A program made the position numbers and the translations under genes. Below are positions 10,654-29,303 of a DNA stretch of 64,000 bases, in pieces. The DNA comes from a virus. Lineage: Duplodnaviria; Caudoviricetes. The notes beneath the pieces are model-generated. The model made no database searches. It saw only the letters and a list, made by a program, of their open reading frames with translations, and was not told the DNA's origin. The stretch spans positions 7,061 through 71,060 of the IMG/VR virus record IMGVR_UViG_3300037067_021960, one strand, 5' to 3'. Positions within the stretch are counted from its first letter, which is position 1. Each line of letters opens with the position of its first letter.

Positions 10654-10683
10654 CTCTGCCTCCCGCCGTTGAGTGTTCGAACC

Positions 10684-10712: not shown

Positions 10713-10725
10713 GAGGCGAAGTGTG

Positions 10726-12036: not shown

Positions 12037-12063
12037 ACACAACGACACAACAAGGTGTACACT
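12034..12063 (+). promoter_or_regulatory. Promoter for a probably leaderless transcript
   Basis: TAGACA-18-(TG)TACACT; ATG begins after a 7-nt gap. Confidence 0.6.
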
Positions 12064-12070
12064 GCCCGGT

Positions 12071-12364
12071 ATGAGACAGTTCGATGTCTTTGAGGAACAG
12101 GGACGCCTAGAGCGGCGGAAAGAGGAGAAGCCCCGCGCGATCGGCCTCGGGGTAATCGCGCTCCTGGCTTTCTTCCTTGGGCTCGGCATCGGCGAAGCCA
12201 CACACGTCTACGCGCTCTCGGTGATCGGCTGCCTGGCAGGGATCTTCCTCGCCATGATCGCAATCGACAACCGCGACACCAAGGGCACCGCGGTCACGAC
12301 CATCGTCCTTGCGGCCCTCTACCTCATCTACACGCTCAGCGGGCAGATCCAGGCAATGCAGTAG
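12071..12364 (+). CDS. Small membrane protein (about 3 TM)
   Basis: Three hydrophobic segments in 97 aa. Confidence 0.75.
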   Translation: MRQFDVFEEQGRLERRKEEKPRAIGLGVIALLAFFLGLGIGEATHVYALSVIGCLAGIFLAMIAIDNRDTKGTAVTTIVLAALYLIYTLSGQIQAMQ

Positions 12365-12384
12365 GACAGGCAGGCCGCCGTCAC

Positions 12385-13620: not shown

Positions 13621-13823
13621 GCTCACCGCCTCGCAAGGAGCCGCTCGACCCACACGAACGGCGTCCAGCGGCCGCGCCAGTAGATCCGGCTCGTCACAGT
13701 GGTCGGTGTGGACATGGTTCGAAAGGTGCGCCAATCAATACTGAGTCTGCGTCTGCGACGTTTCACGGCAAGCCCCCTTGGTGGTTTCCCGTCTTCCCGC
13801 CTAGACGGGTTCCTGTCTCTCCG

Positions 13824-14816
13824 TCATAACGCCAGGCGCACTTGCTGGCGCGTCGTGCGCTGCTTCCCATACACGGACAGAACCTCCCCCTCGACGACCT
13901 CTCGGAAGCAGCGGCAAAGGATCGCCTCGCCGGGGTGGCCGTCCTCGGGAGGCTCGTCGATCGAGTAGATCTGGCCCTCGCGGTCCCAGTGCGACGGCCG
14001 GGCACGCGGATAGCGCCCGTTCGGGTTGCCGCGTACGCGTTCGTCGCCCATGTTCCGCCAGATGTAGGTTGTGAGCCCGGCTTGGTGCCAATGCTCGTCG
14101 GACACCGCTGCGGTGAAGGATCCGCACTGGTCACGGGCGATGATCCCGGCACGCTTCCAGGTGACCGGGTAGACCTCCTGGATCGCCTTCTTGATGTCCT
14201 TCAGCATCGACCCCGAGCGCATGCCGTTCAGGACGACGCGCTCGATGTCACCGAAGTAGGTCTGCGGGATCGTCTTGATGAGGGAGACCTGCTCCTTCAC
14301 GTGCGCGGTGACGATGTCGTACAGCCGTGCGTTCTTGATGAGCGGGTCGATGCCGGTGATCGACTTGATGGTCTTCTTCCACTGGCGCTCGCAGTACGCC
14401 CGGATCTGGTGAGCGTACTCGTACATCTCCTGCTCGAGGATCGCGTCGTCGAGGGCGCCGAGCATGATCGCCTTGAGGCGCTCGAGCGCCGCGACTACCT
14501 CCTCGATGTCATCCGTTCGCACCGCAGACGCCGCGTCGTCGGTCCGGCGTTCCCTCTCCCATCGCTCGATCGCCGGCAGAAGCTCTGTCTCGAGGGCAGC
14601 CGCGAGGAGCCTCTTCTGGTTCTCGATCAGCTCGCGCAGGTAGCGCATGTATTTATAAGCGTAGGCTGTTGGGAAACGGATCCCGCGCGCGCGGCGCCGG
14701 CGCACCCGGCGGACCGTCGGCTCGTCCGCGTCGAACAGCGCCTCGTAGGCGTCGTTGACCTGCCCGACGTCAGCGAGGAGCTCAATGAGTAGACGAGACC
14801 GAGTACTTAGCGACAT
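13824..14816 (-). CDS. Phage head morphogenesis protein (SPP1 gp7/MuF family)
   Basis: IARDQ, YIWRNMGDERVR, HPGEAILCRC. Confidence 0.9.
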   Translation of the reverse strand: MSLSTRSRLLIELLADVGQVNDAYEALFDADEPTVRRVRRRRARGIRFPTAYAYKYMRYLRELIENQKRLLAAALETELLPAIERWERERRTDDAASAVRTDDIEEVVAALERLKAIMLGALDDAILEQEMYEYAHQIRAYCERQWKKTIKSITGIDPLIKNARLYDIVTAHVKEQVSLIKTIPQTYFGDIERVVLNGMRSGSMLKDIKKAIQEVYPVTWKRAGIIARDQCGSFTAAVSDEHWHQAGLTTYIWRNMGDERVRGNPNGRYPRARPSHWDREGQIYSIDEPPEDGHPGEAILCRCFREVVEGEVLSVYGKQRTTRQQVRLAL

Positions 14817-14984
14817 CGCGCACCTTCGCTGTCTCTGTGACACACCCACGCCCCACCGGCCAGATCTCCCGGACGCGCTGGCCGCGTCGCGCCTTTGGAC
14901 CGACGGTCGACGACACGTACTGGACGTCCTGCCAGCGGCCGCAGGAGCGCTCCTGGATGGCCCACTGGCGCACGGCCTTGTCAT

Positions 14985-15737
14985 TCATGTCCGGCTCCCG
15001 GCAAAGAGGCGCGTCCGCGACATGAACACCTTGCGGTTCCGCTCGATGTTCGCGTAATGGTCCCGGCCGCGCGGGTGGTAGAGGTGAGTCACGCCGGCCC
15101 GCGGCTCGTAGAGGACATCCCCGCCCGCCTGGTAGACACGGACGGCGTAGTCGGTCTCCTCCCAGCCAAAGCCGCCGTCGTAAGAGGTCTCGAAGACCCC
15201 GACCGTGTCGAATGCGGCCGCCGTGACGAGCATATTCCCGCCCCCGCCGCGTTCGAACAGGCTCACTTCCCGCCGGCGGAGCGCCCCGCGGTCGTGGACG
15301 CGCGGATCCTCGTCGACCGTTCCATCCGCACGCTCATGCTCCGTAGAGCCAAACAGCATCGTTACGCCCGCTGGATCGACGTCGCGATAGGCGTCGAGCC
15401 ATCCAAGGCCCGGCAAGCAGTCAGCGTCGAGGAACACGTACGCAGCCATATTAGGGACCGCACGGACCCCGTCATTGCGCTGCGATGCCAGCCGCCACTG
15501 CCGGCCGACAGAGGCCTGCCGGCAATCCACAATCCGGCACGCGATCGCTTCCTCGCCCATCATAACCATGACGTCAGGCAGCCACCATTGGTCGTCCGAT
15601 GCCGAGAGGACAAGGCAATCACTCTCTGTCATCTGCCGCGTTACCTCATCGAGCACCGCGACGAGCGCATTCAGGCGTGTCGTGTCTCCAGGAGGAACGT
15701 GAACAGGGATGACAATCCCTAGCGACGGTGCCCTCAT
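14985..15737 (-). CDS. Glycosyltransferase family 2
   Basis: IVIPV, RNDGV, FLDADCLP (DxD), GFGWEETDYA, HLYH. Confidence 0.88.
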   Translation of the reverse strand: MRAPSLGIVIPVHVPPGDTTRLNALVAVLDEVTRQMTESDCLVLSASDDQWWLPDVMVMMGEEAIACRIVDCRQASVGRQWRLASQRNDGVRAVPNMAAYVFLDADCLPGLGWLDAYRDVDPAGVTMLFGSTEHERADGTVDEDPRVHDRGALRRREVSLFERGGGGNMLVTAAAFDTVGVFETSYDGGFGWEETDYAVRVYQAGGDVLYEPRAGVTHLYHPRGRDHYANIERNRKVFMSRTRLFAGSRT

Positions 15738-16132
15738 GCCTCTTTCTCCCCCTCGCTCTCGGCAGGCTCGGCCGGCTCGCACACAGGCACCATGCCAAGC
15801 GCCTGGAACGGCATCGAGATCGCGAGCTCGTCGGCTCCCATCTGTCCGAATCGAGCGTCACGGAAGAACCGCAACACGTGCGACATGCAACAGAACTCGA
15901 ATTGCAGCTTCTTGGGCGATTGCAGCACAGGCCGGTACTCGACGCTGATGAACACCCGCCCTTCGGATGACGGGAAGATCATCCTCACGTCCGAGGAGAT
16001 CCCGCGCCCGAACACGTCGATCGTCCGCGGGCACTCGGTCACGATCAGGCCGCCGCAGAAGTCGCAGTAGATCTTCTCCTGCACGACGTGCAGACAACCC
16101 CGATCGCAGCGTTCCGTGACCCGTTCGCGCAC
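15734..16132 (-). CDS. Hypothetical Cys-containing protein
   Basis: GGAGG RBS; YCDFCGG...FCCMSH. Confidence 0.55.
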   Translation of the reverse strand: MRERVTERCDRGCLHVVQEKIYCDFCGGLIVTECPRTIDVFGRGISSDVRMIFPSSEGRVFISVEYRPVLQSPKKLQFEFCCMSHVLRFFRDARFGQMGADELAISMPFQALGMVPVCEPAEPAESEGEKEA

Positions 16133-16157
16133 CGTGCCTCCCGGCCGCCATCCTACG

Positions 16158-16394
16158 TTACCCGTCGACTGCCGACAAAGCGGGTTCCTGGGATGCCATC
16201 TTCCCGGCTTTCCTCTCGGCTTCCGGCGACAGGATGATCGTCGCGACTCGCTCCAACCCGAGCACGATGGCCTCAGCAAGCGCCTGCACCTCAAGAGAGT
16301 TCCGCATGTTGACGTAGCCGCCGTGGCTCTTGCACGTTCGCACCACGCTCTCTTTGAGCACCTTCCGGCGGTTCCTTCTCAGAGCGTCATGCAT
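16158..16394 (-). CDS. Small hypothetical protein
   Basis: Coupled to the epimerase stop. Confidence 0.5.
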   Translation of the reverse strand: MHDALRRNRRKVLKESVVRTCKSHGGYVNMRNSLEVQALAEAIVLGLERVATIILSPEAERKAGKMASQEPALSAVDG

Positions 16395-17334
16395 GCACGG
16401 CCTCCTTCCGCGACAGCTCCGCGGCCATGCGTTCCAGACCGTCCGCAAGCTCGACCTGAGTCCAGAACCCCAGCATGCCGAGGATCAGGTTCGAATCCAG
16501 AACGCTGTGCACGATGTCTGCCTCCCGCGGCTCATCGCGCTCGACAACGATCTCCTGGTACTTCTGCTGGAACCAGTCGACAAGCGTGTTGATCGTCGTT
16601 CCTTTGCCCGTGGAGACGTTCAAGATGGCGTTCTTGATCGCCGCTTCGCCTGATGTTGGCGCGCGCAGACAGGTATAGATCGCGCGGACGATGTCATCCA
16701 CGTGGACGAAATCGCGCACCTGCTCGCCAGTGCCATACACCCGCAGCGGCAGATCCCCAGCTACCGCCCGGAAGAACTCCGGGATCACGCCCGGCACGTC
16801 GAGGGCGCCGTAGACATTGCCGAACCGCAGTGAGATGACACTCGGCCGCGCTGCCTTCTGGCGTACGATCTGCTCGTCCCACAGCTTCGTGTTGCCGTAC
16901 ACCCCCGCCGGCGAAAGCACGGCCGTCTCATCTGCCCGTTCGCTCTCCCCGTATACCGCAGCCGACGAAGCAACGATGACTCGCTGTACGCTCTCACAGA
17001 GCCGTGCCGCCCGGAACACAGCCGCCGTGCCGAGCACGTTCACGCCAATCGCCCGCTCACGGTCGTCCTCGCACGTCTGCACGTCGGAGACCGCTGCAAG
17101 GTGAACGATCGCTTCGACCTGCAGGAGATCGACCAGGCGCTCAAGCTGGTCGGAGTCCAGTATGTCGAACGGAGAGAGAAGCACTCGCCCAACACGGAGC
17201 AGGTCCTCGATCCGCTCGCTCTTTCCGGTGGAGAGGTTGTCTACGACTGCAACCGCGTGTCCCTCCTCTACCAACGCCCGTACCAGCCTTGAGCCAATGA
17301 ACCCCGCGCCGCCTGTCACGAGGATCCTCACCAT
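16387..17334 (-). CDS. NAD-dependent epimerase/dehydratase (GalE-like)
   Basis: VTGGAGFIGS, VDNLSTG, HLAA, SSAAVYG, YGNTK, LRFGNVYG, RDFVHVDD. Confidence 0.93.
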   Translation of the reverse strand: MVRILVTGGAGFIGSRLVRALVEEGHAVAVVDNLSTGKSERIEDLLRVGRVLLSPFDILDSDQLERLVDLLQVEAIVHLAAVSDVQTCEDDRERAIGVNVLGTAAVFRAARLCESVQRVIVASSAAVYGESERADETAVLSPAGVYGNTKLWDEQIVRQKAARPSVISLRFGNVYGALDVPGVIPEFFRAVAGDLPLRVYGTGEQVRDFVHVDDIVRAIYTCLRAPTSGEAAIKNAILNVSTGKGTTINTLVDWFQQKYQEIVVERDEPREADIVHSVLDSNLILGMLGFWTQVELADGLERMAAELSRKEAVHA

Positions 17335-17365
17335 TCCCTCCTTGCCGTCTTCACGGCTTCTCGTC

Positions 17366-18022
17366 TTACCAGCGCTGGAACACGCGTGCATCCACTTCAC
17401 GACAGCGCGCGATTCCGGCCTTCGTGTCGATCCGTCCCCACTCCGCGTTGTAGAACGCGTACTGGTCCACGATGTCATTCGGCAGCGCTCGCAGTCCGTC
17501 GACGAGCCGTACGCCACCCGCCTCCTCGGCTTTCGCTACGGTGGACCAGAAGCGCGGACAGCGGTTCACCCGGACGGCGCCGACAATGAACTGGCCACCT
17601 TCGTAGAAGCGCTCAGTCGCCCCATCGACTGTCTCCCCCGTGACGAGCGCCGCTATCGTGTTCTCCCGCACGTCGAAAAGGCTGTCGAGGTCAGTCACAT
17701 ACACGCCCGGCTGGAGGATGATCACGTCCTCCAGGCGGTACTCGAAGAGGAGCGACAGCGCGTGGAGGTCGCCCTGCTCGTCGTAGTCGATCACGATCTC
17801 GGTGCTATCTAGGATCCGACCCGTCAGAGCGTCGCGCAGCGCGAGCGTGTCCTTCTGCCCAGCGACGAGCACGATCCTCGTACAGCCTGCCTGCTGCAGA
17901 ACGAGTCCCAACCGCTGGATGAACAGCACACCTGGCTGCGCTTCGCCAAGCAGCGCTCCCGCACCGTCTTTGGCAACAAGGAGGATCCCCGTCCGCTCAC
18001 GCTCTTCGTTGTCGCCGGACAT
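17366..18022 (-). CDS. Divergent nucleotidyltransferase-fold protein
   Basis: ILLVAKDG...RLGLVLQQAGCTRIVLVAG and WGRIDT echo NTP_transferase/LicC-like folds; the catalytic G-rich motif is eroded. Confidence 0.55.
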   Translation of the reverse strand: MSGDNEERERTGILLVAKDGAGALLGEAQPGVLFIQRLGLVLQQAGCTRIVLVAGQKDTLALRDALTGRILDSTEIVIDYDEQGDLHALSLLFEYRLEDVIILQPGVYVTDLDSLFDVRENTIAALVTGETVDGATERFYEGGQFIVGAVRVNRCPRFWSTVAKAEEAGGVRLVDGLRALPNDIVDQYAFYNAEWGRIDTKAGIARCREVDARVFQRW

Positions 18023-18677
18023 GGCACCCCCTCCCCAGCTCGAGATCGCCCACTCGGTCGTCCAAGTCGACCGTAAGAACCAGTGGCTTCGCCTGCATGA
18101 CTATGACGCGGTACAGGCCCGACGCTACACCCAAGTCGACCAACTCTCGCTTGCACCGCAGGTGCCTGTCCTTCACATTCTTCGACGCGAAGTTGACCTT
18201 GTAGTCACCCTCGCCATCCGTCCGGAGGTCAAAGCGCAGCACTCTCTCCTTGCGGTAGACATCCATGCTGCGGAATCGCGTCAGCTGGTGCTCGGCGACC
18301 GTGGCCACCGGGAAGACCACCTGTCCCGCTTTCGTCACGCTGATCGTCCCCGCAGGATTGCGCGGGCCGCCGCCACGCCGCACACGCACCCGCTCCCACC
18401 CGTCGCCGGCCGCAACGGCCGGCTCTGTCTTCCTCCGCCCCTTACGCGGATGGATCTGGACCTCTTTCCTGATGTGCTTGGTCCGCAGAATGGAGTCGAT
18501 CTCCGCAACCGTGATCATGCTCGCCGCGATCTCCGCCTCCGACTTCTTCGTGTGGAGGCGTCGCTCCTTCTCACGCCACTCGTCCACCCATGCCTGCTTC
18601 TCCTCCTGTGTCACCGGCGGCGGATCCGTAGCATCGAGCGCCTTGATGAGACTGCTCAGGCACTTCACCTCAGGCAT
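17997..18677 (-). CDS. Hypothetical protein
   Basis: 226-aa ORF coupled on both sides. Confidence 0.65.
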   Translation of the reverse strand: MPEVKCLSSLIKALDATDPPPVTQEEKQAWVDEWREKERRLHTKKSEAEIAASMITVAEIDSILRTKHIRKEVQIHPRKGRRKTEPAVAAGDGWERVRVRRGGGPRNPAGTISVTKAGQVVFPVATVAEHQLTRFRSMDVYRKERVLRFDLRTDGEGDYKVNFASKNVKDRHLRCKRELVDLGVASGLYRVIVMQAKPLVLTVDLDDRVGDLELGRGCHVRRQRRA

Positions 18678-19206
18678 GCCGTGCCCTCCTCCGGCGCCAG
18701 GCACGGATCCCAAGCCATCCGAGGGCCATCGCGGCCAGCCCGCCGAACACGATCCCCACCGTGCGCCACACAACCGTCGATGCCGGCCACATCGGAGCGA
18801 CATCCTCCACGAGGTCGCGGGTGATCGTCGCGATCGCTGTCGTCCGCTCCTCGACGTGCTGCACGGTCGTCTCGAGCGCCGCGGCCCGTTGGTCGATCGC
18901 CGTCACGCGCACGTCGATGCTCGCCTTCGCCTGTGCCGACGCCGCTGACACGCTCGCCGCTACTGCTCCCGCGATCGTTCCCCCTGCCTCCAGCTCCGCT
19001 CCCACGACTTCATGCACCCGTTGCGTCACGTACGGGTCCAGTAGGCCGTACAACGCCTCCGGGTCCACGGGGATCTGCTCGGTGCGTGTCAGCTGCTCGC
19101 TGTAGGAGTACTGCAGCACGGGCGCCGGTGGCATCACGAGGACCGCAACCGCCCCGGCCACCAACGCGACCCACCCAATCAGAAACAGCCTGCCCGTCCA
19201 GTCCAT
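18670..19206 (-). CDS. Membrane protein (2 TM flanking a coiled coil)
   Basis: Hydrophobic N- and C-terminal segments and a basic tail. Confidence 0.75.
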   Translation of the reverse strand: MDWTGRLFLIGWVALVAGAVAVLVMPPAPVLQYSYSEQLTRTEQIPVDPEALYGLLDPYVTQRVHEVVGAELEAGGTIAGAVAASVSAASAQAKASIDVRVTAIDQRAAALETTVQHVEERTTAIATITRDLVEDVAPMWPASTVVWRTVGIVFGGLAAMALGWLGIRAWRRRRARHA

Positions 19207-19254
19207 AGTCTGAGCCCCCTTCGTGCGCTTGCGCGCCTTGCCGTCTTTCCGCCT

Positions 19255-19392
19255 TTACGGCTTCACCAGTTGCTGCTTCCCGAGGATGCGACGTACCTCG
19301 TTCTCGCGGTACCACCACTTTCGCTGCTCACGGCTGTACTCTTTCCACGTCTTCTTCCTGCTGCCCCTGAACTCATACCACACGATCGGCAC
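19255..19392 (-). CDS. Small basic hypothetical protein
   Basis: Manual translation MPIVWYEFRGSRKKTWKEY... Confidence 0.45.
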   Translation of the reverse strand: MPIVWYEFRGSRKKTWKEYSREQRKWWYRENEVRRILGKQQLVKP

Positions 19393-19552
19393 GCTTCTTC
19401 CTCCTCTCCGGAAGCTTGATCGCCAAGAGCCAACGCAGAACGAGCAGGCCCAGCATGACGAAGATCGCGATGCTTGCCGCCCGTCGGGGATCGACTCCCC
19501 ACGCCATCCCGATCACGAGTGCCAGAAACCCGCACGCCAGGAGCCCCTTCAC
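19373..19552 (-). CDS. Small membrane protein (2 TM)
   Basis: Manual translation MKGLLACGFLALVIGMAWG...IAIFVMLGLLVLRWLLAIK. Confidence 0.55.
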   Translation of the reverse strand: MKGLLACGFLALVIGMAWGVDPRRAASIAIFVMLGLLVLRWLLAIKLPERRKKRADRVV

Positions 19553-20106
19553 GGCTTACCGCCTTCCCGGCTTGCTGGGTTTCGACGAGCCAGCTCCTCG
19601 TAGAATGCAACGACCTCATCCACGCTCATTCCGCTATCCCAAACGTGCAGGTCGTCGTAATCGGGATACGTCAGCAGCCAGTACACGTCGTCGAGCGTGA
19701 GCCGGTTCCAGTCCGGCTCCCTCATCCCGAGCGACACGGGGTTGGGGTCCCGGTACTTGAGGACGAACGTGCGGAGCATCTCGTAGGCATCACGCTTGCG
19801 AATCACCCGCGCTGGGTTGCCGGCAACGATCGAGTACGGCGGCACCGTCCCCGCGACGACGGCCAGCGTGCCGACGATGCACCCCTTCCCGATCTCGGCC
19901 CCGAGAAGGATCCGCGCACCGTCCCCGATGTAGCAGAAGTCGCCGATGGTGATCCGATCATGCTCGAACGGACGAGTCGGCCCATGGCGAATGATCCGGG
20001 CCCCCTCCCCGAGGACGACGTAGTCACCAATCGTCAGGTCGCCGCACGGTGTTGGGTCGATCCAGCCAGCGTCGCGGAAGAAGTCGCCGATCGTCACACT
20101 AGGCAT
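19549..20106 (-). CDS. Hexapeptide-repeat (LbH) sugar O-acetyltransferase
   Basis: IGDFCYIGDGARILLGAEIGKGCIVGTLAVV...PYSIVAGNPARVIR. Confidence 0.9.
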   Translation of the reverse strand: MPSVTIGDFFRDAGWIDPTPCGDLTIGDYVVLGEGARIIRHGPTRPFEHDRITIGDFCYIGDGARILLGAEIGKGCIVGTLAVVAGTVPPYSIVAGNPARVIRKRDAYEMLRTFVLKYRDPNPVSLGMREPDWNRLTLDDVYWLLTYPDYDDLHVWDSGMSVDEVVAFYEELARRNPASREGGKP

Positions 20107-21133
20107 GGATCGCCCTCTCGATGAACTGCGCCATGAGGCGACCCGACACCGCCGGCTGAGTGTAGTGCTCTTCGTTCCAGCGGACAGACGCAGTGAGCGG
20201 TCGTGCTTCCCGGACCGCCGCGACAACGGAGGCCACCGTCATGTCCTCATAGTTGCCCGCGTAGCATTCGCCGATCTGCAGCGTGTCAACCATCGCCTCG
20301 CACTTCGGTTGGCCAAAGAAGACAGCTCGGCCGCCGCCGCCAAGCACCGGGATCGCCATGTGGAGCCTACTCGTGATGATGAGATCAACTTCGGCCAGCC
20401 TGATCCGCAGGTCATCGAAGTCCTTGGGCCACACGAGATCGCACTCTGGGAAGAGGCGAACGAGCTTCCGATGCAGCACATGGTCGTTGTCCCAGTCAGT
20501 GGTCTCCGACCAACTCGCAGGAATGGCTATCCAGTGACCGTCGAGTGCCTCCAGCGCCTTGGCAAGCACACCAAGGACGTGGTCTTGCACGCTCTCCGAT
20601 TGCCGCGCGAGGTGCCACGAAACACAGATCGCGTGCTTCGTTCTCTGGGCCCACGCCGTTTCGAGGAACATCGGATCTGGAACAAGCCGCTCGTCTTGTC
20701 TATGCTGCGACACTGCGTACCCGGCGAACGTATCCCGCACTGTCACCGCGGCCGCTGCCTTCACGACCTTCGCACCATCCGACTCCGGCGGGATCATGTC
20801 CCACGAGCCGGCACCCCAGATGATGAACGGCTTCCCCATCGCCATGAGGTCGAGCGTCTTTGGCATCGGGTTCGGGCCGAGAACGGTCCCCGGGCCGTAG
20901 ATCCAGAGGTCGGCCTTGGCCATGAGCGCCTCGACCTTCGACCAGTTGTCGCGCGTGGCCCAGTCGGTGACGTCCTTGTGCTCCTTCTGGATGGCGGCCG
21001 CGTCCGAGCCAATGAGGTAGAACTCCGCGTCGGGGTGCGTCTGGCGAACCAGCGTCCGGACCGCGAGGGCGCTGCGCTCGTCACCGTAGTTTCTTGTTCC
21101 CAGACACCCATGCTGGAGGATTCGGAGGGTCAT
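20099..21133 (-). CDS. Polysaccharide pyruvyl transferase family (CsaB/WcaK-like)
   Basis: GTRNYGDE, VTVRD, VPDPMF, ITSRLHMAI. Confidence 0.88.
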   Translation of the reverse strand: MTLRILQHGCLGTRNYGDERSALAVRTLVRQTHPDAEFYLIGSDAAAIQKEHKDVTDWATRDNWSKVEALMAKADLWIYGPGTVLGPNPMPKTLDLMAMGKPFIIWGAGSWDMIPPESDGAKVVKAAAAVTVRDTFAGYAVSQHRQDERLVPDPMFLETAWAQRTKHAICVSWHLARQSESVQDHVLGVLAKALEALDGHWIAIPASWSETTDWDNDHVLHRKLVRLFPECDLVWPKDFDDLRIRLAEVDLIITSRLHMAIPVLGGGGRAVFFGQPKCEAMVDTLQIGECYAGNYEDMTVASVVAAVREARPLTASVRWNEEHYTQPAVSGRLMAQFIERAIHA

Positions 21134-21327
21134 CTTCCATCAGCCCACAACGCGAACACGATGAACACGAACGGACCGCACAGCAATCCCGTTCTCATCA
21201 CTCGCACCTCGGTCCTGTCATCCTGCACTCCCAGCCGCCTAAGCACCTCGCACCACCGCAGCGCAGGAAAGAACCCACACACGACCCACATGCACACAGC
21301 GAACCCCGCCCATCCCCACAACGGCAT
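21130..21327 (-). CDS. Small membrane protein
   Basis: Two hydrophobic stretches; coupled to its neighbours. Confidence 0.55.
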   Translation of the reverse strand: MPLWGWAGFAVCMWVVCGFFPALRWCEVLRRLGVQDDRTEVRVMRTGLLCGPFVFIVFALWADGR

Positions 21328-22383
21328 CTAACTCACCGCCTTGCGGAAGTCGTCCACCCAGCAGGCGACCGTCGCCGACCAGGTATGGTTCTCCTTCATG
21401 AAGCGAATCGCCCCGTCGCGCATCGTGCGCGGCGCAACGGGCTCGTTGAGGTACCACTCGACAGCGGCTCTGTACTCAAGCCCATCGTCCTTGGGAACGA
21501 TCGTTCCCAGACCCGTCGCCTTGACGAGCTCGTCGCCGCCGGTCGCACCGTCCATGACAACGGGGACTCCGCAGGCGAGGTAGTCCCACAGCTTGCAGTT
21601 GTTCACGAGCCGCGCCTCGCCCGCTGTGCCGGAGTCAAGGGCCACGTCGGCGTAGTACAAGTAGTGCTGGAACGTCCCGTGTGGCATCCGGCCGAGGAAG
21701 CGCACGTTCGGGATCTGCGCAAGATCGTGCTCAATCTGCTCGTGCCCGGGCTCGACGTTGGCGATGACCCACACGGTCGCGTACGGGAACGCTGCGGCCA
21801 CCTCCCGGATCCACTGATAGACCCGGTGTGTGGCCGTGAGGCGCCCGGCGTAGACGATGTTCTTGGTCCCCGGCTCATACGGGTTCGGCTTCACCGGCGG
21901 GAACGTCCACCAGTCGGGGACACCCCACTCGGCAACCCACATTCGAGAGAACAAGCTCGGAAGTTGCTTCGGATCCTCTGTCGGCCCGAAGAGATCATGA
22001 GTGAACTTCTCGAACGCTTTACGCCGCGTGAAGCAGATCCCGCGGTACATCGAGAGGAGTTCGCTCCGCGAATGGCGCCGCCCAGGTGAGTCGCTGTGGA
22101 GCAAGAGCACGGCCGGCTTCTTGAAGTCCCACAAGCCGTTCTCCTCCACGTACTCAGCGAGGTTCCACTCGGACACGAACATCACGTCGGCCGTGTCGAA
22201 CGGCTCACGATCACGAAACCCCTTGAACGGGTACGCATCGAAGCCATGCTGCGAGAGCGCGGCCGCAATCCCATAGGTCGAGCCGCAGATCGAGTGTGCG
22301 TACCAGCGATCGCGGGTCCCCATCTCCTCGCTCGGCGGCCCCTCTGGATGAAGACCGCCCACCACAACTACTCTTTGGGACAC
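21328..22383 (-). CDS. Glycosyltransferase, GT-B (GT4-like)
   Basis: VYAGRL, FLGRMP, ADVAL, CKLWDYLACGVPVV. Confidence 0.88.
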   Translation of the reverse strand: MSQRVVVVGGLHPEGPPSEEMGTRDRWYAHSICGSTYGIAAALSQHGFDAYPFKGFRDREPFDTADVMFVSEWNLAEYVEENGLWDFKKPAVLLLHSDSPGRRHSRSELLSMYRGICFTRRKAFEKFTHDLFGPTEDPKQLPSLFSRMWVAEWGVPDWWTFPPVKPNPYEPGTKNIVYAGRLTATHRVYQWIREVAAAFPYATVWVIANVEPGHEQIEHDLAQIPNVRFLGRMPHGTFQHYLYYADVALDSGTAGEARLVNNCKLWDYLACGVPVVMDGATGGDELVKATGLGTIVPKDDGLEYRAAVEWYLNEPVAPRTMRDGAIRFMKENHTWSATVACWVDDFRKAVS

Positions 22384-23126
22384 GAGAACACCCCCTGGAA
22401 GTGGTTGTGCAGCCGTACGAGCTCCGCAGGGATCACCAACGCGTTCTTCTCCCCCTCGTCGACCTCCAGAGGCGCCAGCATCCCCGCCACGGCACCGAGG
22501 AGAACGTAGAGGTTCGCCTCGTTCGGATCTCTGATGAGCCGCTGCAAGAACTCAGCCGCGTACGGCCGCACCCAGTCAATGCCCTCGCTCTTGCGTGCTC
22601 TCCGAAACAGCGTCCGGTAGCGCTCATAGCACGCCTGCGGGCTCTGCGTGGCCTTGTGGACACCTGCCACACCGATGTCCTTACCGATGCGCGCCACAGT
22701 GTGGTAACCATCCGCCTCAGCCCGCCGGAACTGGTCGGTCTCACAGCCTTGCACGGCACGGAACGGGTACTTCTTCGCGATCTCGTGCCGAACGATCCGC
22801 ACGCCGAGGATGTCACGTCCAAGGTGCTCGTCGTGGAGCGAGATCAGCGCCTGGTAAACGCTTGGTGGCTGGCTCTCGATAGTACGATAGAGCCGCTGCA
22901 CGGCGTCCTGGTAGAGGACCATGTCCGCGTCGACCTGGATAAAGTACGGCGTCGTGCAGCGATCGAGCATCGCCTGTAGTGCCCGATCCATCGGCGCCAC
23001 GTTCTCGATCCGCTCGATCTTCACCCGGTGCGTCTGTCGCTCGAGGGCCACAATGCACTCAAGCGTCGTCGGCTCACCGACGGTGAGCACGAACGCCGTC
23101 ACTTTGTCTCGCAGATCCTCAGACAT
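22368..23126 (-). CDS. Glycosyltransferase, GT-A (GT2-like)
   Basis: CTTPYFIQVDADMVL (DxD). Confidence 0.78.
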   Translation of the reverse strand: MSEDLRDKVTAFVLTVGEPTTLECIVALERQTHRVKIERIENVAPMDRALQAMLDRCTTPYFIQVDADMVLYQDAVQRLYRTIESQPPSVYQALISLHDEHLGRDILGVRIVRHEIAKKYPFRAVQGCETDQFRRAEADGYHTVARIGKDIGVAGVHKATQSPQACYERYRTLFRRARKSEGIDWVRPYAAEFLQRLIRDPNEANLYVLLGAVAGMLAPLEVDEGEKNALVIPAELVRLHNHFQGVFSCPKE

Positions 23127-24208
23127 CAGGCCACCCCCAGTCGGCGCGCACCTTCGCGCAGGAACTCAAGCCATGCACCCACCGCATTCGGCCACTGGTA
23201 CGGCCGCGCCAGCTCCGCAATGTGCAGGCCCATGACGTTGAGCGTGGCTTCATCGCAGGCAAGAACCGTGAGCGCATTCCGCAACTCCATTGGAGACTGG
23301 TCAATGAGGAACCCTGAGTGTCCCGAGACGACGATCTCCGACGTGATCCCGACGCGTGTTGAGACGACCGGAACACCGCACAGCGAGCATTCGACCGCTG
23401 GCGTCGGCAGTCCCTCGTGGTCGCTCATGCAGACGTAGACGTCGATGTCGTTACGGTAGTAGTCGGCGATCTCGGCCCGCGTGCGGGGAATCGCGTTTCC
23501 CACCCCACGCCAGAGCACCGGCCGCAGGCTGACGTTCGGAAGGCCTGACACGCCCTCCTCGACGAGGGCGTACCGCTTGAACGGCTTCTGCGGGTTGCCG
23601 ACCCAGCCCACGCGGAGGACTCGGCGCGTACCTCGCCCGTCCTGCACTAGCTCGACAGTCTTTCCCCTCGCTGCGACGTCCTTGTTGACAAGCACGCCTG
23701 GCGGATTCCACGGTGGGTAGAACATCGCCGGATCCCCCGCCACGCTCACCCGAAAGACGTCGCCGCCCCGTGCCGGGCCCCACACGGCCATGAGTGGAGG
23801 GCAGATCGTCGACAGCGCTGTGGCCGCAAGCCCGGCGTCGCGGAAGTTGCTCCAGTAGAGCGAGAACGGAATCGGCTGGTCGACCTTGGCCTCAACCGGG
23901 GCCATGTGGACGGTCGTGATGTACGGCAGTCCAAGCGGCCGGATGTGGATCGCTTCGTACAGACAGAACGGCCACAGGACATCGTACGTGCTGAGCCGTT
24001 CCTTCACCCGGCGCGTTGGCACGCCACGCAACTCCTCGTGCCAAGCAATGACGTCGATGTCGAACTCACAGTCACCGAACCACCGCACAAGGTCGTTCGC
24101 GATATGCTCGAGCGCCCAGCCCCGCACATCAACGATGATCGCGACCGTGATCTTTCCTGCGGTCTTGGTCGTCTCTCCCCCCACCAAGCCGTCACCTCCC
24201 CGGTTCAC
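23126..24208 (-). CDS. Glycosyltransferase, GT-B (GT4-like)
   Basis: GWVGN...KR, DVYVCMSDHEGLPTPAVECSLCGVPVVSTRVG. Confidence 0.9.
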   Translation of the reverse strand: MNRGGDGLVGGETTKTAGKITVAIIVDVRGWALEHIANDLVRWFGDCEFDIDVIAWHEELRGVPTRRVKERLSTYDVLWPFCLYEAIHIRPLGLPYITTVHMAPVEAKVDQPIPFSLYWSNFRDAGLAATALSTICPPLMAVWGPARGGDVFRVSVAGDPAMFYPPWNPPGVLVNKDVAARGKTVELVQDGRGTRRVLRVGWVGNPQKPFKRYALVEEGVSGLPNVSLRPVLWRGVGNAIPRTRAEIADYYRNDIDVYVCMSDHEGLPTPAVECSLCGVPVVSTRVGITSEIVVSGHSGFLIDQSPMELRNALTVLACDEATLNVMGLHIAELARPYQWPNAVGAWLEFLREGARRLGVA

Positions 24209-24214
24209 TCGCGT

Positions 24215-25660
24215 CTACCCCTCCGTCGGTGCCTCCAGGAACAGGTCCTCCATGAGCGGCAGGCTCGTCAGATCGCCGCCGAGGAGCTTCTGAATCATGT
24301 CGTCCTTCACACCGACGTCGACGAAATTGAGGAGCGCCGTCGAGATCGAAAGGAGCGCCTGGCCGCGCTGCTGCATCGCCTGCGTGCGCTTCACCTCGAG
24401 GTCCTCCTGCTCAAGCCGCGTCAGCGTCTCCGCCGGGTTGAACACGAGCCGGAACCGCAGATCCTCTCTCCAGCCCTTCTCGGCACGCAGCGTGTCCGTG
24501 GCGAGCACCATCTGCACAAGGCGCCGTAGCGGCTGGCGGAGGTACGCCTCCTGGCGTGCGTTGATGTAGTCGTAGTACCGCCGCAGGTCGCTCATCGCGC
24601 TCGCGAGCTCGCCGCTCTGGGCACCGATGAGCCGCGAGCGGTTGATGCGCGTCGCCGCACCGAGGACATCCCACACCCAGTCGACGAACCAGCCGAGATC
24701 GCCAGGAGAGTTCGACCCTGTCTCCATCTTCTCGTCCTGGTCGAGGACGACAACCGAGAGAGAGTTGAACTTGGCCTCGATCTCGTCCATCCACGACAAG
24801 CGCTCGGAGAGGTTGTCGGTCAGGAAGCGGCTCGTGACCTTGCGGGTCGCCATGTTGAACGCCGTCTGGCCGAGCGACCAGATCGTGTTCTCGATCAGCT
24901 GCGCGACCGTCCAGAAACGACAGTAGAACGACATCCCCATCCGCGAGCCGACACGTGGCCGCGTGAGGAAGAAGAGCGCTCGCGACGCGTCGAGGTTCAC
25001 TTCCTCGCCGGAGAGTCGCTTGATCGTGAATGCCTGCGGCTTGCCGTAGGTCAGCGACTCCTCATTCGTGTCGAGGATCACGTCGGAGAACCGCGCATCG
25101 CGCGGGATGGGCTCGATGTAGCGAATCTCCTTGACGTTCTCGATCTCGAGCGGCTTCGCCGGATCCGGCTTGCCCTTGCGCTGCACGACTCCGATCGCCG
25201 CTAGGCCGACGCCGTAGACAATCTCGTGGCACAACGAGGTCTGGAGATAGTCCTTGTACCCGAGATTCTCCATGTACAACTGCACTGTGCGCGACAGCGT
25301 CTTCAGATACGGATTCTCTTCGTCGTCTTCGAAAGCGACGGACACGCCAGACTTGAGCATGTCCTCGCTCATGATGTCGGCGACGTGGCCGCAGATGAAC
25401 ACACCCTCGTAGAGGGCCGTCTGGGATACCGGATCATGGAGCCACTCGGGTACACCCAGTGGGCGCTGTTTGGCGAGCGGATCGCGGGCCCCCATCTGCG
25501 TGCCGCTGGGAACGAAGACCCCCGCGTCCGTGCGTGCAACACGGCCTTCCTTCTCGAGGCGCGCTGACTGCTGCACCAGCTCCGCGGCGCCCGGCCGTCG
25601 TCTCTCTCCGTCCGTCACGCTCGCTCCTTCGTCAGACCGCGGAAGTAGAGATCGATCCAC
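24215..25660 (-). CDS. Portal protein (DUF1073-like); real start probably GTG at 25618
   Basis: Follows TerL; RLIGAQSGELASAMSDLRRYYDYINARQEAYLRQPL motif. Confidence 0.85.
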   Translation of the reverse strand: MDRSLLPRSDEGASVTDGERRRPGAAELVQQSARLEKEGRVARTDAGVFVPSGTQMGARDPLAKQRPLGVPEWLHDPVSQTALYEGVFICGHVADIMSEDMLKSGVSVAFEDDEENPYLKTLSRTVQLYMENLGYKDYLQTSLCHEIVYGVGLAAIGVVQRKGKPDPAKPLEIENVKEIRYIEPIPRDARFSDVILDTNEESLTYGKPQAFTIKRLSGEEVNLDASRALFFLTRPRVGSRMGMSFYCRFWTVAQLIENTIWSLGQTAFNMATRKVTSRFLTDNLSERLSWMDEIEAKFNSLSVVVLDQDEKMETGSNSPGDLGWFVDWVWDVLGAATRINRSRLIGAQSGELASAMSDLRRYYDYINARQEAYLRQPLRRLVQMVLATDTLRAEKGWREDLRFRLVFNPAETLTRLEQEDLEVKRTQAMQQRGQALLSISTALLNFVDVGVKDDMIQKLLGGDLTSLPLMEDLFLEAPTEG

Positions 25661-27096
25661 CCTCGCGATCGCCCCACGGTCTTGGCGGCGAAGACGGCCA
25701 GCGCGTTAGACCAGAACGAGTCTCCGTGGCCATGCGGCGTCTCCATCGCATCAAGTGCCCCATCCACGGCGAGGATCTGCTCCAGTTGACGGTCGTATCC
25801 GTCATCGCCTGTCTCATCCAACAGATGCAGCCGGCGGTTCGTGACCTCGATGTCGAGGTCCGTTGCGATCTTCCACTCGTTTCGGCTCGACAGAACGACG
25901 GGAACCATCTGGCTCGGCAGCTCGCTCCGCTCCGCGAGCGCCTCGAGCTCGCCGCGGGTGTTGTCATAGGCGAACGAGCGGATGTGGTACTTCGCGATCA
26001 GGCGCTTCACGAGCTCGAGCTGCTGGCTGTACTCCCAACCGTCCATCCAGATCGACCGCCGCTGCCACTCGTGACCGTTGGGCAGACGCCGCAAGACCGA
26101 GATGTGCGCCGGGTGCCGCTTCTTGCCGAGGTCCCAGCCGCCGACGACGAAGCCGCCAAACTCGGGGTAGCCGTCCGACTTCGGCGTCACGATCAGCCCG
26201 TTGAAGTCCGAGCGCTGGAAGAACCCCTCCACCGAGCGCGCCGGCTTGCACAGCATCTCCTTGGCAAAGGCGATCCGCCCCATCGCCTGCAGATCCTCCG
26301 CCAACACCTCCGAGGTCAGCACCTCGGGCCAGAGGAGCCGTCCGCCCTCGTCCACCGCCGGGTAGATCTGCCAGTCGCACTTTGGATTCTCCCGCACGTG
26401 GAAGAGGAGGTCCGTCTCGTCCTGCGGCGTGCCCGCGATGTGAATCTCCGAGCGACCGACCTTCGCGATCTTGCGGATCTCCTGCTGGAAGATGCGCGTG
26501 ATCTTGGCGATCTGACTGACGTCGAGCGGCTTGCGCGGGTCGGTGAGAACGTCGTCGAGGAGAAGCACGTCAGCACGGAGGCCGCGCTTGAACGCCATCA
26601 TGCCCACCGGCTGGCAGGACAGCCGCTTTCCCGTTCGGCGGTCCATGTAGCGCAGCACCGTCTTCCCGGCACGCAGAGGGACGATCCCACGCATCAGGTA
26701 GAGCGGGTTCGTGTCGATATACTGCTTCGCCTTCTCCGTGTGCTGGCCGGCGAACTTCTGAATGTAGCTGAAGTAGAGCGCCTCGATGTTCCGGCCGAGC
26801 ACGGGAAGCTGCCACACGCAGTAGGCGAGGTACGCGCGGAAGAGCGTCGACTTGAGCGACCCACGCGGCGCGATCGTGCAGGTGAGAGTCGACCGTGGCA
26901 AGCGGCGGCACCACTCGTGATGGTGGGCACCCATCCCGAACACGCCCTCCTCCTCCATGTAGCCGATGCTGAAGACGTGCTCGTAGAACTCCTCGAACGT
27001 CAGGTCGTCGCACGATGCCAGAGCCTGAAGCGCCGCGTGCTCCTCGGCGGTGGCCACCCGATGCCCGCGCTCAGCCGCTGCTACGCCCGTCGGCAT
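25615..27096 (-). CDS. terL: Terminase large subunit
   Basis: APRGSLKST (Walker A), GLRADVLLLDD (Walker B), GWDLG and HGDSFWSNALA (nuclease). Confidence 0.9.
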   Translation of the reverse strand: MPTGVAAAERGHRVATAEEHAALQALASCDDLTFEEFYEHVFSIGYMEEEGVFGMGAHHHEWCRRLPRSTLTCTIAPRGSLKSTLFRAYLAYCVWQLPVLGRNIEALYFSYIQKFAGQHTEKAKQYIDTNPLYLMRGIVPLRAGKTVLRYMDRRTGKRLSCQPVGMMAFKRGLRADVLLLDDVLTDPRKPLDVSQIAKITRIFQQEIRKIAKVGRSEIHIAGTPQDETDLLFHVRENPKCDWQIYPAVDEGGRLLWPEVLTSEVLAEDLQAMGRIAFAKEMLCKPARSVEGFFQRSDFNGLIVTPKSDGYPEFGGFVVGGWDLGKKRHPAHISVLRRLPNGHEWQRRSIWMDGWEYSQQLELVKRLIAKYHIRSFAYDNTRGELEALAERSELPSQMVPVVLSSRNEWKIATDLDIEVTNRRLHLLDETGDDGYDRQLEQILAVDGALDAMETPHGHGDSFWSNALAVFAAKTVGRSRGWIDLYFRGLTKERA

Positions 27097-27175
27097 CCCG
27101 CTCCCTTCGCGCCAGGGCAGCCACTACCGCAAGGCGGTAAACCAGCAAGACGCCAATCACGGCACGAGGCATCAG

Positions 27176-27691
27176 TCACCACCGCTCCGCACGGATGAGG
27201 ATCTGCTTGCCCCAGTTGCCGACGACCTTGACGTACGTGAACCCGGCACGTGAGAAGAGGTCGAGTAGCTGCGGCGTCGTGTAGGCATTCACCCAGTTGT
27301 TCTCCCCCCGGACGGCAGGATTCGCCAGACGCCCCTCAGCCGGCGCGTACGACGCGAGGATCGTCGTCACCGCGTTCGACAGCTTGCCCAATAGCCGCGG
27401 CAAGTCTTCGACGTACTCGAGCACTCCGCCGAACACAGCCACGTCGTGTGGCGGAAAGTCCGGCAGCGTCTTGGCGTTGAGGTCGCAGACGAACGTACCT
27501 GAGCCACGGTCGTACACGTCCGACGGCGTGTACATGCACCCACGCGGCACCCGCTCGCGCAACGCCATCGTCCACGCCCCGAACTCAATTACCGAGCGCG
27601 CGTCGGGTTCGATCAGCGCGGCCAAGAGCTCTGTCCTCGCGTCCCATTCCGGAACAGGCCGCGGCCGCTGCCACCGTTTCGTATCGCTCAA
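27176..27691 (-). CDS. Class I SAM-dependent methyltransferase-like protein
   Basis: SVIEFGA, YTPSD, CDLN, DVAVFGGVLEY. Confidence 0.75.
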   Translation of the reverse strand: MSDTKRWQRPRPVPEWDARTELLAALIEPDARSVIEFGAWTMALRERVPRGCMYTPSDVYDRGSGTFVCDLNAKTLPDFPPHDVAVFGGVLEYVEDLPRLLGKLSNAVTTILASYAPAEGRLANPAVRGENNWVNAYTTPQLLDLFSRAGFTYVKVVGNWGKQILIRAERW

Positions 27692-27906
27692 TGTCTCACA
27701 ACCTTTGCCACCAATTCCTTTCTGCGATTCCTCCGGATCTGAGCTGTCGAACGCTTATTCCTCCGTGCTCGCAGTTCAACAACACCATCGACAACCCGAA
27801 AGTCGATCTCGTGAACAAGGCCGCAGTCGCAGCACATCATTCGATAGCTCGACATCACCGGGCGCACCCACTCGTCATCCACGACCACTGGGTAGAGCCT
27901 GCTCAC
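27688..27906 (-). CDS. Small phage protein
   Basis: CCDCGLVH motif. Confidence 0.7.
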   Translation of the reverse strand: MSRLYPVVVDDEWVRPVMSSYRMMCCDCGLVHEIDFRVVDGVVELRARRNKRSTAQIRRNRRKELVAKVVRH

Positions 27907-28421
27907 CCTTTCACCCCGCTCGTTGGCTCAATGATCAACAGGACGATGGAAAACGGAGGTCGCTCGTTCGGTCCGACTTCGGTACTACCAGGTTTGATGA
28001 AGCGCCACCGACCTCGTTGAAACTCGGTGTGTAGGCGAGATCCGTCCCTGTCCCTGATCGGCTCGACCAGCTCTTGCCACCAGTCCTGTTCCGTGCGGTT
28101 GGCCGGAAGCAGCATGACGATCAAGTCCGCATCCGTCTCTCTCAGGGCCTTCTCGACCCACGGCCGAATACTCGAGTACGGCGGGTTCACGTAGACTCTC
28201 TCACCGCTCCAGCTCTGCGATAGCCCATTGACATCTACTGACCAGTACCGTGGCAGGCGTGCATTCACGGCGGACGCTGCCGCGTCGACCGTAAAGCCGA
28301 ATCTCTGTTGGAGCGTCGCAAACAGGTCGTCTGGTAGCGTCCGATCGTCGGGGTCAACGTAGTTAGAGAACAGCTCTGGATATCCCGGTCGTGTCTGCCT
28401 ACAGTACCGATGAAGCGTCAC
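27903..28421 (-). CDS. Phage Dam-type N6-adenine DNA methyltransferase
   Basis: FTVDAAAS..NA, VYVNPPYS, MLLPANRT. Confidence 0.9.
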   Translation of the reverse strand: MTLHRYCRQTRPGYPELFSNYVDPDDRTLPDDLFATLQQRFGFTVDAAASAVNARLPRYWSVDVNGLSQSWSGERVYVNPPYSSIRPWVEKALRETDADLIVMLLPANRTEQDWWQELVEPIRDRDGSRLHTEFQRGRWRFIKPGSTEVGPNERPPFSIVLLIIEPTSGVKG

Positions 28422-29303
28422 ACCGCCTCCATGTACGCCATCACGAACTCCGCCGCGACTTGCGACACGATTGCATTGCCCGCTCCCCGCAGGAGGCCCA
28501 CTCTGCCGGGTACCCCATGAGCCAAAGGCTGAATCGTGGGTTCAATGCGCCGCGCGACGATCTTCCCGGTACGTGGTTCGCGGCAATAGACAACGCGGTA
28601 CTCTGACCAGGGAGAATGCTCGCCACCTGCTGATGAAGAGGGATCCCCGTGTCCTGCAGACGGAATGTCCCCGTCCCTCTCCGGTGGTCGGATACCGTCG
28701 GAGTGGACCAGCCCACAAGGACCGTGGCTGCTTGGTCCTCGAGACGACTCCCTTTCCCCGTATGTTCCAGGCACGGTATGCCTCCGTTCGTTGTCACTCT
28801 GGGCGTCCCCCCACCCAGAAAAGACGGAGCCTCGGTTGCGGGGCACCGACGGCCGCAGCAGGAAGAGCTGACGTCCCGACGGCATAGCCACATGCTTCCA
28901 GGTCAGTCTGTACTCCATCGAGCCATAGGCGCCCATCCGTGCTCTCAACCTGCTCTCCAAACACGACTGTAGGGCGGCACTCCGCGATGAGGCGTCGGAA
29001 CTCGGGCCACAGGTGGCGCTCGTCTCGCTCTCCGCGTCTTTTCCCAGCGACGGAGAACGGCTGGCAAGGGCAACTCCCAGTCCACACGGCTCTGTCGTCT
29101 GGCCATCCAGCAAGTCGAAGAGCGTAGGACCAGCCTCCGATGCCCGCGAAGAAGTGGCATTGCGTGAACCCATCAAGGTCGCCGGGGCGCACGTCAAGGA
29201 TGCTTCTCTCGTCCACCTCTCCATCAGCGATCAGCCCTGCCTTGATGAGTTCGCGCAGCCACGAACAGGCCTTCGGGTCGTTGTCGTTGTAGTAGGCCGG
29301 CAT
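28418..29303 (-). pseudogene. C5-cytosine methyltransferase, alpha frame, frameshifted at the C6 run 28807-28812
   Basis: FFAGIGG, SCPCQPFS, GEQV and RLRLFWV upstream; LRGAGNAIVSQVA (motif X) downstream in another frame; removing one base gives an 885-nt ORF. Confidence 0.85.
28441..29224 (-). pseudogene. Overlapping beta polypeptide of the C5 methyltransferase (alternative frame), broken at the same base
   Basis: ...SGW|GTPRV...GWSTP...LNPRFSLWLMGYPAEW (motif IX); removing one base gives a 783-nt ORF. Confidence 0.75.

Follow-up and report, generated by a model that had tools for sequence, protein, structure and literature searches.

In this study, we examined a set of glycan-biosynthesis genes that lies between the portal and MuF head genes of an uncultured phage (Duplodnaviria; Caudoviricetes). 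The window, that is the whole stretch of 64,000 nucleotides that was analysed, corresponds to bases 7061–71060 of the 71,060-bp IMG/VR viral contig IMGVR_UViG_3300037067_021960, and all coordinates given here are those of the window unless they are marked 'contig'. The block at 14985–24208 is a real, tightly coupled cassette for the building and tailoring of a glycan, located within the packaging and head gene block. Genes were called by Pfam, NCBIfam and PHROG profile searches, in places together with ESM Atlas and PDB/Foldseek comparisons. These searches found all genes that an initial annotation, made from the sequence alone, had named here, on the minus strand and where it had placed them, and the glycosyltransferase (GT) families GT4 and GT2 as well as the polysaccharide pyruvyltransferase family PS_pyruv_trans were called above the Pfam cut-offs. 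The tight coupling that it described was also seen, as the junctions from terL to MuF consist almost throughout of ATGA or GTGA overlaps or of gaps of 0–6 nt. Its inventory was incomplete, however, and had overlooked a CxxC protein, a 78-amino-acid (aa) protein, the probably non-enzymic nature of a 226-aa protein and a neighbouring C5 cytosine DNA methyltransferase.

Followed along the minus strand, on which all genes of the block lie, the gene for the large terminase subunit TerL (25615–27096; phrog_38, 3e-29) is 86% identical to that of L002, a contig of the closest relative, and is followed by the gene for a 467-aa portal protein (24215–25618; Phage_portal_3, 3e-40), whose start was set from P0001 and from the junction, a GTGA overlap with the terL stop. 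The first gene after the portal encodes a GT4 glycosyltransferase (GT4a; 23126–24208; Glycos_transf_1, 5.8e-12), homologues of which occupy the same position in L002 (72% identity) and in the relatives L012 (40%) and L007 (38%). It is followed by a GT2 glycosyltransferase (22368–23126; Glycos_transf_2, 25.1 bits against a cut-off of 23.3), which is homologous to the N-terminal part of a GT2::radical-SAM/SPASM fusion protein in L007, and by a second GT4-like enzyme (GT4b; 21328–22383; Glyco_trans_1_4, 29.3 bits; Glyco_trans_1_2) that is 83% identical to its L002 counterpart. PHROGs contains no family for GT4a, GT2 or GT4b. Further along, the polysaccharide pyruvyltransferase (20099–21133) matches PF04230 over profile positions 1–265 of 280 with 38.2 bits against a cut-off of 25.3, while with the CsaB model it reaches 47.6 (1.4e-12), below the equivalog cut-off of 213.1. 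As the Pfam cut-off is passed and that of the CsaB equivalog is not reached, we regard the protein as a PF04230 member and not as a CsaB orthologue. It belongs to a small clade of 7 proteins (E<=1e-8) encoded on metagenomic contigs, with a GT-A glycosyltransferase of the phage type present on four of these contigs as well, and it has no relative in PHROGs or, by tblastn, in 50,697 GenBank phage records, a collection that would include the characterized mycobacteriophage GTs. The next enzyme is a left-handed beta-helix (hexapeptide) acetyltransferase (19549–20226; Hexapep, 6.7e-9), the start of which is uncertain; it matches the WbbJ and phn_thr-fam models at 1e-15 and is 71% identical to its homologue in L002.

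Between and after these genes, three small membrane proteins are encoded, as judged from hydropathy. The first (65 aa; 21130–21327) has two hydrophobic segments, and its position in L002 is taken by a 60-aa protein lacking transmembrane (TM) segments. The second (59 aa; 19373–19552), again with two hydrophobic segments, has a start that overlaps the acetyltransferase stop, and L002 leaves no room for a counterpart. The third (178 aa; 18670–19206) consists of an N-terminal TM segment, an alanine-rich coiled coil and a C-terminal TM segment with an RRRR tail; it matches no Pfam family, and a protein of the same architecture, 26% identical, is found at the same position in L002. An open reading frame (ORF) at 19263–19619 (minus strand) was rejected as spurious, being a low-complexity Arg/Gly/Ser sequence without any relative. 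The ORF at 17997–18803 was shortened to 17997–18677 and encodes the protein of about 226 aa, a member of a rare family with 24 relatives among 1.8 billion representatives. Its AlphaFold2 (AF2) model (pLDDT 83.9) predicts a five-helix N-terminal domain, a disordered basic linker and a beta C-terminal domain; the best Foldseek match in the PDB is MraZ at E 0.2–0.4, with none at E<=0.001, and the matches in BFVD are uncharacterized phage proteins. The protein shows no known enzyme fold and is probably not a sugar enzyme, and the modelled C-terminal domain is weakly MraZ/AbrB-like and possibly DNA-binding.

The remaining genes of the block return to sugar metabolism. A 218-aa protein (17366–18022) has no Pfam match of its own, even at E<=1, and was tentatively assigned as a MobA-like nucleotidyltransferase through the ESM Atlas, in which it resembles NTP_transf_3/NTP_transferase clusters (feature score 0.96, structure TM score 0.83); its homologue in L012 (tblastn, 2e-8) passes NTP_transf_3 (PF12804) at 33.6 bits. 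The adjoining gene (16387–17334) encodes a GalE-like NAD-dependent sugar-nucleotide 4-epimerase of the SDR type (Epimerase, 1.2e-51; galE model, 3.4e-44; phrog_540, 5e-60), the best PDB matches of which are UDP-glucose 4-epimerases (8e-37). It is followed by the conserved 78-aa protein (16158–16394), which has no PHROG match and is 67% identical to its positional counterpart in L002, and by the CxxC protein (15734–16132), which we take to be Zn-binding. The latter has no Pfam or PHROG match and its AF2 model is poor (pLDDT 55.6); C9, H15, C23, C26, C81 and H85 are invariant across five lineages. It is always encoded together with the last GT of the block, directly before it in four of the five lineages, and here its stop overlaps the start of that gene in an ATGA. 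The last GT (14985–15737) is a GT-A enzyme of the GT2 type, recognized by alignment and by its DxD motif 'DADC'; its relatives carry PF00535, PF10111 and PF02709, and weak PDB matches link it to chondroitin synthase and ppGalNAc-T. The gene for the MuF-family head morphogenesis protein (13824–14984; Phage_Mu_F, 3.4e-15; phrog_324, 3.8e-48) starts directly after its stop. At the other end, directly before terL, a 171-aa protein (27176–27691) is class-I methyltransferase-like and was listed as a SAM methyltransferase by the initial annotation, which was right as to its position; the identity is doubtful, as the protein reaches 22.9 bits with Methyltransf_23 against a Pfam cut-off of 27, has a degenerate glycine loop and finds no NCBIfam, PHROG or PDB match. 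It has a 61% identical homologue in L002 and is parted from the GTs by terL and portal; it is an uncertain member of the system.

Relatives of the phage were recovered with portal and GT-A profiles. Of the 80 loci returned by a scan of metagenomes with the GT-A profile, only L016 and L015 (the L002 contig) belong to the clade; the other loci were distant GT2 genes without phage head genes. Four lineages, with portal identities of 43–72% and GC contents of 53–65%, carry a glycan island in the interval from portal to MuF. The closest lineage (L002/L009/L015; viral record G001) keeps the whole gene set at 44–86% amino-acid identity. L007 (GC 53%), the contig of which was binned into a Bipolaricaulota metagenome-assembled genome, has the order portal, GT4, GT2::radical-SAM/SPASM, sulfotransferase-like protein, epimerase, CxxC protein, GT-A and MuF; the fusion is a single ORF of 574 aa (L007 7668–9392) combining GT2, radical-SAM and SPASM parts, next to which the sulfotransferase-like protein is encoded. 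In L012/G004 (GC 58%), GT4 follows the portal after 0.5 kb and MuF follows it after 13.3 kb, and between them lie, after GT4, two left-handed beta-helix acetyltransferases, a PhnD-like binding protein, a permease, an AAA_33 kinase, the NTP-transferase, the epimerase, the CxxC protein and GT-A. The PhnD-like phosphonate-binding protein, ABC permease and AAA_33 kinase genes (L012 3998–6133) stand just upstream of that for the MobA-like NTP-transferase, which suggests that a phosphonate or other phospho-compound is imported and activated with a nucleotide in order to decorate the glycan. In a fifth lineage, L005 (GC 48%), a sulfotransferase-like protein, two GT2 enzymes and a UDP-GlcNAc 2-epimerase are encoded after the portal. 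The first GT4 proteins of L007 (6794–7732) and L012 (36–1052) also gave sub-threshold matches to PF20706 (E 4e-4 and 0.024), the Pfam entry 'Family 4 glycosyltransferase in conflict systems'.

From these gene orders, the island of the clade can be read as a conserved core, consisting of GT4a, the epimerase, the CxxC protein and the last GT-A, and an exchangeable tailoring middle, which carries pyruvyl- and acetyltransferase genes in the phage studied here and radical-SAM/SPASM, sulfotransferase-like or phosphonate-uptake genes in its relatives. The initial annotation had considered the cluster to be inserted between the head genes and had proposed a comparison of synteny across related contigs. 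Since that comparison shows that relatives keep glycan islands in the same portal–MuF slot, the island is, on the evidence of gene order, an old and integral feature of the head module that swaps cassettes, and not a recent insertion. The link to the head module is strengthened by the retention of this slot together with two further contigs, L011 and L013, in which CxxC, GT-A and MuF are followed by a DUF2213 protease/scaffold and the major capsid protein, that is by a classical head module.

Promoter-like sites with an operator were found only at 32299, 10688 and 4245, and the block contains none. As these sites lie only outside the block, it is most likely that its genes are transcribed with terL, portal and MuF as one long unit, as far as this can be predicted from the sequence. 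A palindrome, TAACC-N8-GGTTA, is present in three copies (4245–4262, 10688–10705 and 32299–32316; 0.15 expected by chance) that bracket long transcription units, and the copy at 32299 lies within the spacer of the promoter-like site.

The gene order of the block is unlikely to be the result of misassembly, because a single 20-kb contig of the source run, a groundwater metagenome, spans window 12000–28555 with zero differences and because short contigs from a landfill metagenome of another study are identical over the pieces shown. The viral contig is classed as linear, with a CheckV completeness of ~76%; the window has a GC content of ~64%, and its genes are almost all encoded by the minus strand. 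Genes for sheath-like (DUF3383), tape-measure, baseplate-J and Pam3-type baseplate proteins at 53–64 kb indicate that the phage probably has a contractile tail and is myovirus-like. No cultured phage has a portal more than 24% identical to this one, and a megablast search with the block gave zero matches in the GenBank phage collection.

We suggest that the block is a cytoplasmic glycosylation system for virion proteins that forms part of the head-morphogenesis module in a groundwater and landfill clade of uncultured, myovirus-like phages, a reading that in our judgement stands an even chance of being correct. According to this proposal, the genes would be expressed late, together with those for the particle. 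The GalE-like epimerase and the MobA-like nucleotidyltransferase would adjust the pool of activated donors, the latter by activating a sugar-phosphate or other phospho-compound. Four soluble GTs (GT4a, GT2, GT4b and the last GT-A) would then assemble a short oligosaccharide on a virion protein, with the last GT-A acting together with the Zn-binding CxxC partner to which it is translationally coupled. Finally, the pyruvyltransferase, using phosphoenolpyruvate, and the hexapeptide acetyltransferase, using acetyl-CoA, would decorate the oligosaccharide and render it anionic. The proposal is in keeping with the constant place of the block within the head module and with the swapping of cassettes, which resembles that of a serotype locus; a conserved core with a replaceable middle likewise suggests that an exposed particle glycan is under diversifying selection. 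More tentatively, and as an extension about which we are ourselves doubtful, the locus could be a head-module 'serotype locus', in which a conserved core for priming and finishing (GT4a, epimerase, Zn-binding protein and GT-A) flanks an exchangeable tailoring cassette that makes the capsid glycan anionic in various ways, with a pyruvate ketal here and with sulfate, radical-SAM-modified or phosphonate groups in relatives. Such a particle glycan would be diversified like O-antigens and capsules, and perhaps would mimic the pyruvylated host wall polymers that are bound by SLH-domain proteins.

Several observations weigh against virion proteins as the target. No acceptor was found, and no convincing Ser/Thr-rich C-terminal tag is shared among the candidate capsid, decoration, tube (62489–62911) and sheath (62929–63888) proteins: the major capsid protein (contig 3520–4437) ends in GSTINSTD, only three residues beyond its relatives, and the tube candidate ends in DDDDSII, which has no tag in common with the capsid C terminus. 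Other candidate acceptors are a protein encoded between scaffold and capsid (contig 4465–5079), portal, MuF and the CxxC protein. The GTs are without sequence relation to those in the GenBank phage collection, where tblastn with GT4a and the last GT-A gave only marginal matches (E 3–4e-4) in two uncultured gut phages, and the nearest named enzyme families, CsaB, WcaK, WbbJ, EpsE, TuaC and WbbL-like, act on lipid-linked envelope polymers. The three small membrane proteins inside the block point in the same direction. Furthermore, the immediate neighbours of the block are DNA methyltransferases, helicases and a ParB-methylase. Upstream of terL there are genes for an SNF2 helicase, a frameshifted, dual-frame C5 DNA methyltransferase and a Dam-type methylase, and downstream of MuF there are genes for the ParB-methylase, a plus-strand ParA, a DUF5131 protein, RtcB, a second SNF2 helicase and an ATPase. 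Only after these DNA/RNA-metabolism genes do the DUF2213 protease/scaffold and the major capsid protein follow, in the first 7 kb of the contig, so that the capsid genes lie ~17 kb downstream of MuF. The suggestion of virion glycosylation in the initial annotation thus stands as far as a real cassette in the head block is concerned, but neither an acceptor signature nor homology to GTs of GenBank phages was found for it.

To our knowledge, phage-encoded virion glycosylation has been shown only for a few mycobacteriophages. In these phages, the modification changes antibody recognition. The system of the cluster O (Corndog-type) and F1 (Che8-type) mycobacteriophages and of Myrna, for which the work of Freeman et al. 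(2023) is taken here as it is summarized in PMC11600133, PMC12619734, PMC11256854 and PMC13313380, is an O-glycosylation of the particle. As outlined there, in cluster O phages an O-methyltransferase gene is followed by three GT genes in tandem, which modify capsid and tail-tube proteins (PMC11600133), and the capsid and tube subunits carry their glycans at the C-terminal ends (PMC12619734). The locus described here is similar, going by these summaries, in that tandem phage GTs are encoded with virion genes, a methyltransferase may be involved, no export system is present and the enzymes presumably act in the cytoplasm on structural proteins. However, tblastn with GT4a, the last GT-A and the pyruvyltransferase detected no homology to the mycobacteriophage GTs within the phage collection, and the present phage differs in its contractile-tail baseplate genes and its divergent Phage_portal_3 portal. 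The gene set is also larger, comprising four GTs, a pyruvyl- and an acetyltransferase, an NTP-transferase, an epimerase and a Zn-binding partner; its position between portal and MuF is fixed, and C-terminal acceptor tags such as those of the mycobacteriophages were not recognized.

A second possibility, which we consider unlikely, is that the soluble GTs and the pyruvyl- and acetyltransferase act on undecaprenyl-phosphate-linked intermediates of the host, such as those of O-antigen, exopolysaccharide or a secondary cell-wall polymer, and that the host exports the product. The surface of the infected cell would thereby be changed, for example so that superinfection is blocked or progeny are kept off debris. 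This would be consistent with the envelope-type character of the closest named families, namely CsaB, WbbJ and the EpsE/TuaC/WcaI/WcaL-type GT4 enzymes, with WbbL-like names among the distant relatives of the last GT-A, and with the small membrane proteins of the block. The N-terminal TM, coiled-coil and C-terminal TM topology of the 178-aa protein is also seen in polysaccharide co-polymerases. In addition, the L012 cassette includes a periplasmic binding protein and a permease, and the ParA gene hints that the phage may have a plasmid-prophage lifestyle. Bacterial ketal-pyruvylation loci, such as those containing CsaB for SLH-anchoring cell-wall polymers or WcaK for colanic acid, likewise combine GT4 and GT2 enzymes, PS_pyruv_trans, a hexapeptide O-acetyltransferase and an epimerase in one operon, and surface-polysaccharide loci share the cassette-like, variable organization. 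Unlike in the bacterial loci, however, no initiating transferase, flippase, polymerase or chain-length regulator was recognized here, the cassette is placed within a phage head module, and the pyruvyltransferase forms its own small clade. No gene of the block has a Pfam match to an initiating phosphoglycosyltransferase, a flippase, a polymerase or GtrA/B, and the 71-kb contig encodes no ABC exporter and no polytopic membrane protein, that is none with at least four hydrophobic segments; this bears out the earlier observation that export proteins of the Wzx/Wzy or GtrAB type are missing. Because of these absences, export-dependent envelope synthesis is disfavoured. The Wzz Pfam model does not match the 178-aa protein, and even the closest relative lacks conserved counterparts for two of the three small TM proteins. 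The reading also has to accommodate a block that lies between portal and MuF without a promoter-like site of its own, and a slot that is kept in relatives with GC contents of 48–65%; these relatives presumably have different hosts, each of which would need compatible lipid-linked acceptors.

Glycosylation of the phage DNA, in which the GTs would place sugars on a hydroxylated base before packaging and thereby protect it from restriction, is kept under consideration because a C5 cytosine methyltransferase gene adjoins the block, three genes upstream of terL. It is a serious alternative in principle, which we nevertheless regard as improbable. The gene (PF00145; 28418–29303, minus strand) is frameshifted in the window and spread over two overlapping frames, one with the N-terminal half and its FAGIGG and PCQ motifs and the other with the C-terminal half and its GNAIV motif. 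It is intact as a single ORF in L002 (6469–7782; G001) and absent from G002–G005, so that it is broken here, where the glycan genes are intact, and missing from four of the five related records that keep the glycan island. The Dam-type methylase, the ParB-N6/N4 methylase, the SNF2 helicases and the possible DNA-binding domain predicted for the 226-aa protein would be in line with DNA as the target. So would the account of Pyle et al., as far as it is drawn on here, in which DNA-glycosylating GTs adjoin epimerases, secondary GTs, ParB, methyltransferases and terminase genes, and thousands of GT clusters lie next to C5 methyltransferase/5mYOX or thymidylate synthase (ThyS) genes (Pyle et al., bioRxiv 10.1101/2023.12.21.572611); the neighbourhood reported there resembles this locus. 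As in the DNA hypermodification clusters of that account and in the arabinosylation and glucosylation of 5hoC/5hmC (PMC13326640), GT-A and GT-B enzymes related to those for envelope polysaccharides are present, with an epimerase beside a GT and with methyltransferases, ParB and terminase nearby. However, when this record and five relatives were searched in six frames, neither Tet_JBP (PF12851) nor Thymidylat_synt (PF00303) was matched at E<=1; the viral records among them are 19–76% complete, two of the five relatives being ~75% complete. The remark in the initial annotation that no base hydroxylase is recognizable thus extends to the relatives. GT contigs without a neighbouring 5mYOX or ThyS gene are judged less likely to act on DNA in the part of the account used here (Pyle et al., bioRxiv 10.1101/2023.12.21.572611), and neither neighbour is found at this locus. 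Four GTs with pyruvyl and acetyl groups, or sulfo-like groups in relatives, would also place a large anionic glycan on the DNA, and we infer that packaging should be impeded by the added negative charge. In the sections consulted of the same two sources, DNA glycans are reported as mono- to trisaccharides, without pyruvyl, acetyl or sulfo-type tailoring among them (bioRxiv 10.1101/2023.12.21.572611; PMC13326640).

There is similarly little to recommend the view that the cassette adds its sugars to a small molecule, to a protein of the host or to a phage protein outside the virion, such as the CxxC protein that is always encoded with the last GT, for takeover or counter-defence. The best curated match of the last GT-A is the mycofactocin glycosyltransferase MftF (1.8e-8), the PDB relatives of GT4a (MshA, BshA and a tetrahydrobiopterin GT) use small-molecule acceptors, and the L007 fusion has a chemistry typical of peptide-derived cofactors; but the MftF and GT4a matches cover generic donor-binding regions only and are far below the family cut-offs, no precursor peptide or cofactor pathway was seen, and the fixed position in the head module is left unexplained.

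Some further features of the surroundings of the block may be mentioned. The ParA-type ATPase (10998–11747; AAA_31, 6.5e-48) is encoded by the sole clear plus-strand gene, after which a possible 153-aa protein with three hydrophobic segments (11903–12364, plus strand) follows, and the operator-type site at 10688–10705 is nearby; an ORF at 10293–11810 on the minus strand is antisense to the ParA gene and was rejected as spurious. Comparison of ParA with plasmids gave no indication of the host, and no tRNA genes were found in the window. Between the MuF block and the capsid genes, a gene for an RtcB RNA ligase (6868–8226, minus strand; 1.3e-104) adjoins one for a DUF5131 (Gp37/Gp68) protein (8066–9163, minus strand), a family that is also present in L009 and L012.

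Glycosylation of phage particles by phage enzymes is known in kind, and what is new here is its possible occurrence in an uncultured and unrelated clade whose toolkit is larger and chemically different, and which swaps cassettes in a conserved slot. If DNA or the host envelope were the target, the cassette would extend those systems with pyruvyl and acetyl tailoring. If, as we suggest, the particle is the target, the locus would provide compact, soluble and export-independent protein-glycosylation enzymes for glycoengineering. It would also be relevant to how particles adsorb, aggregate, remain stable in groundwater and are recognized by the lectins of hosts or predators, and would imply that phage surface glycans are widespread, chemically diverse and under diversifying selection.

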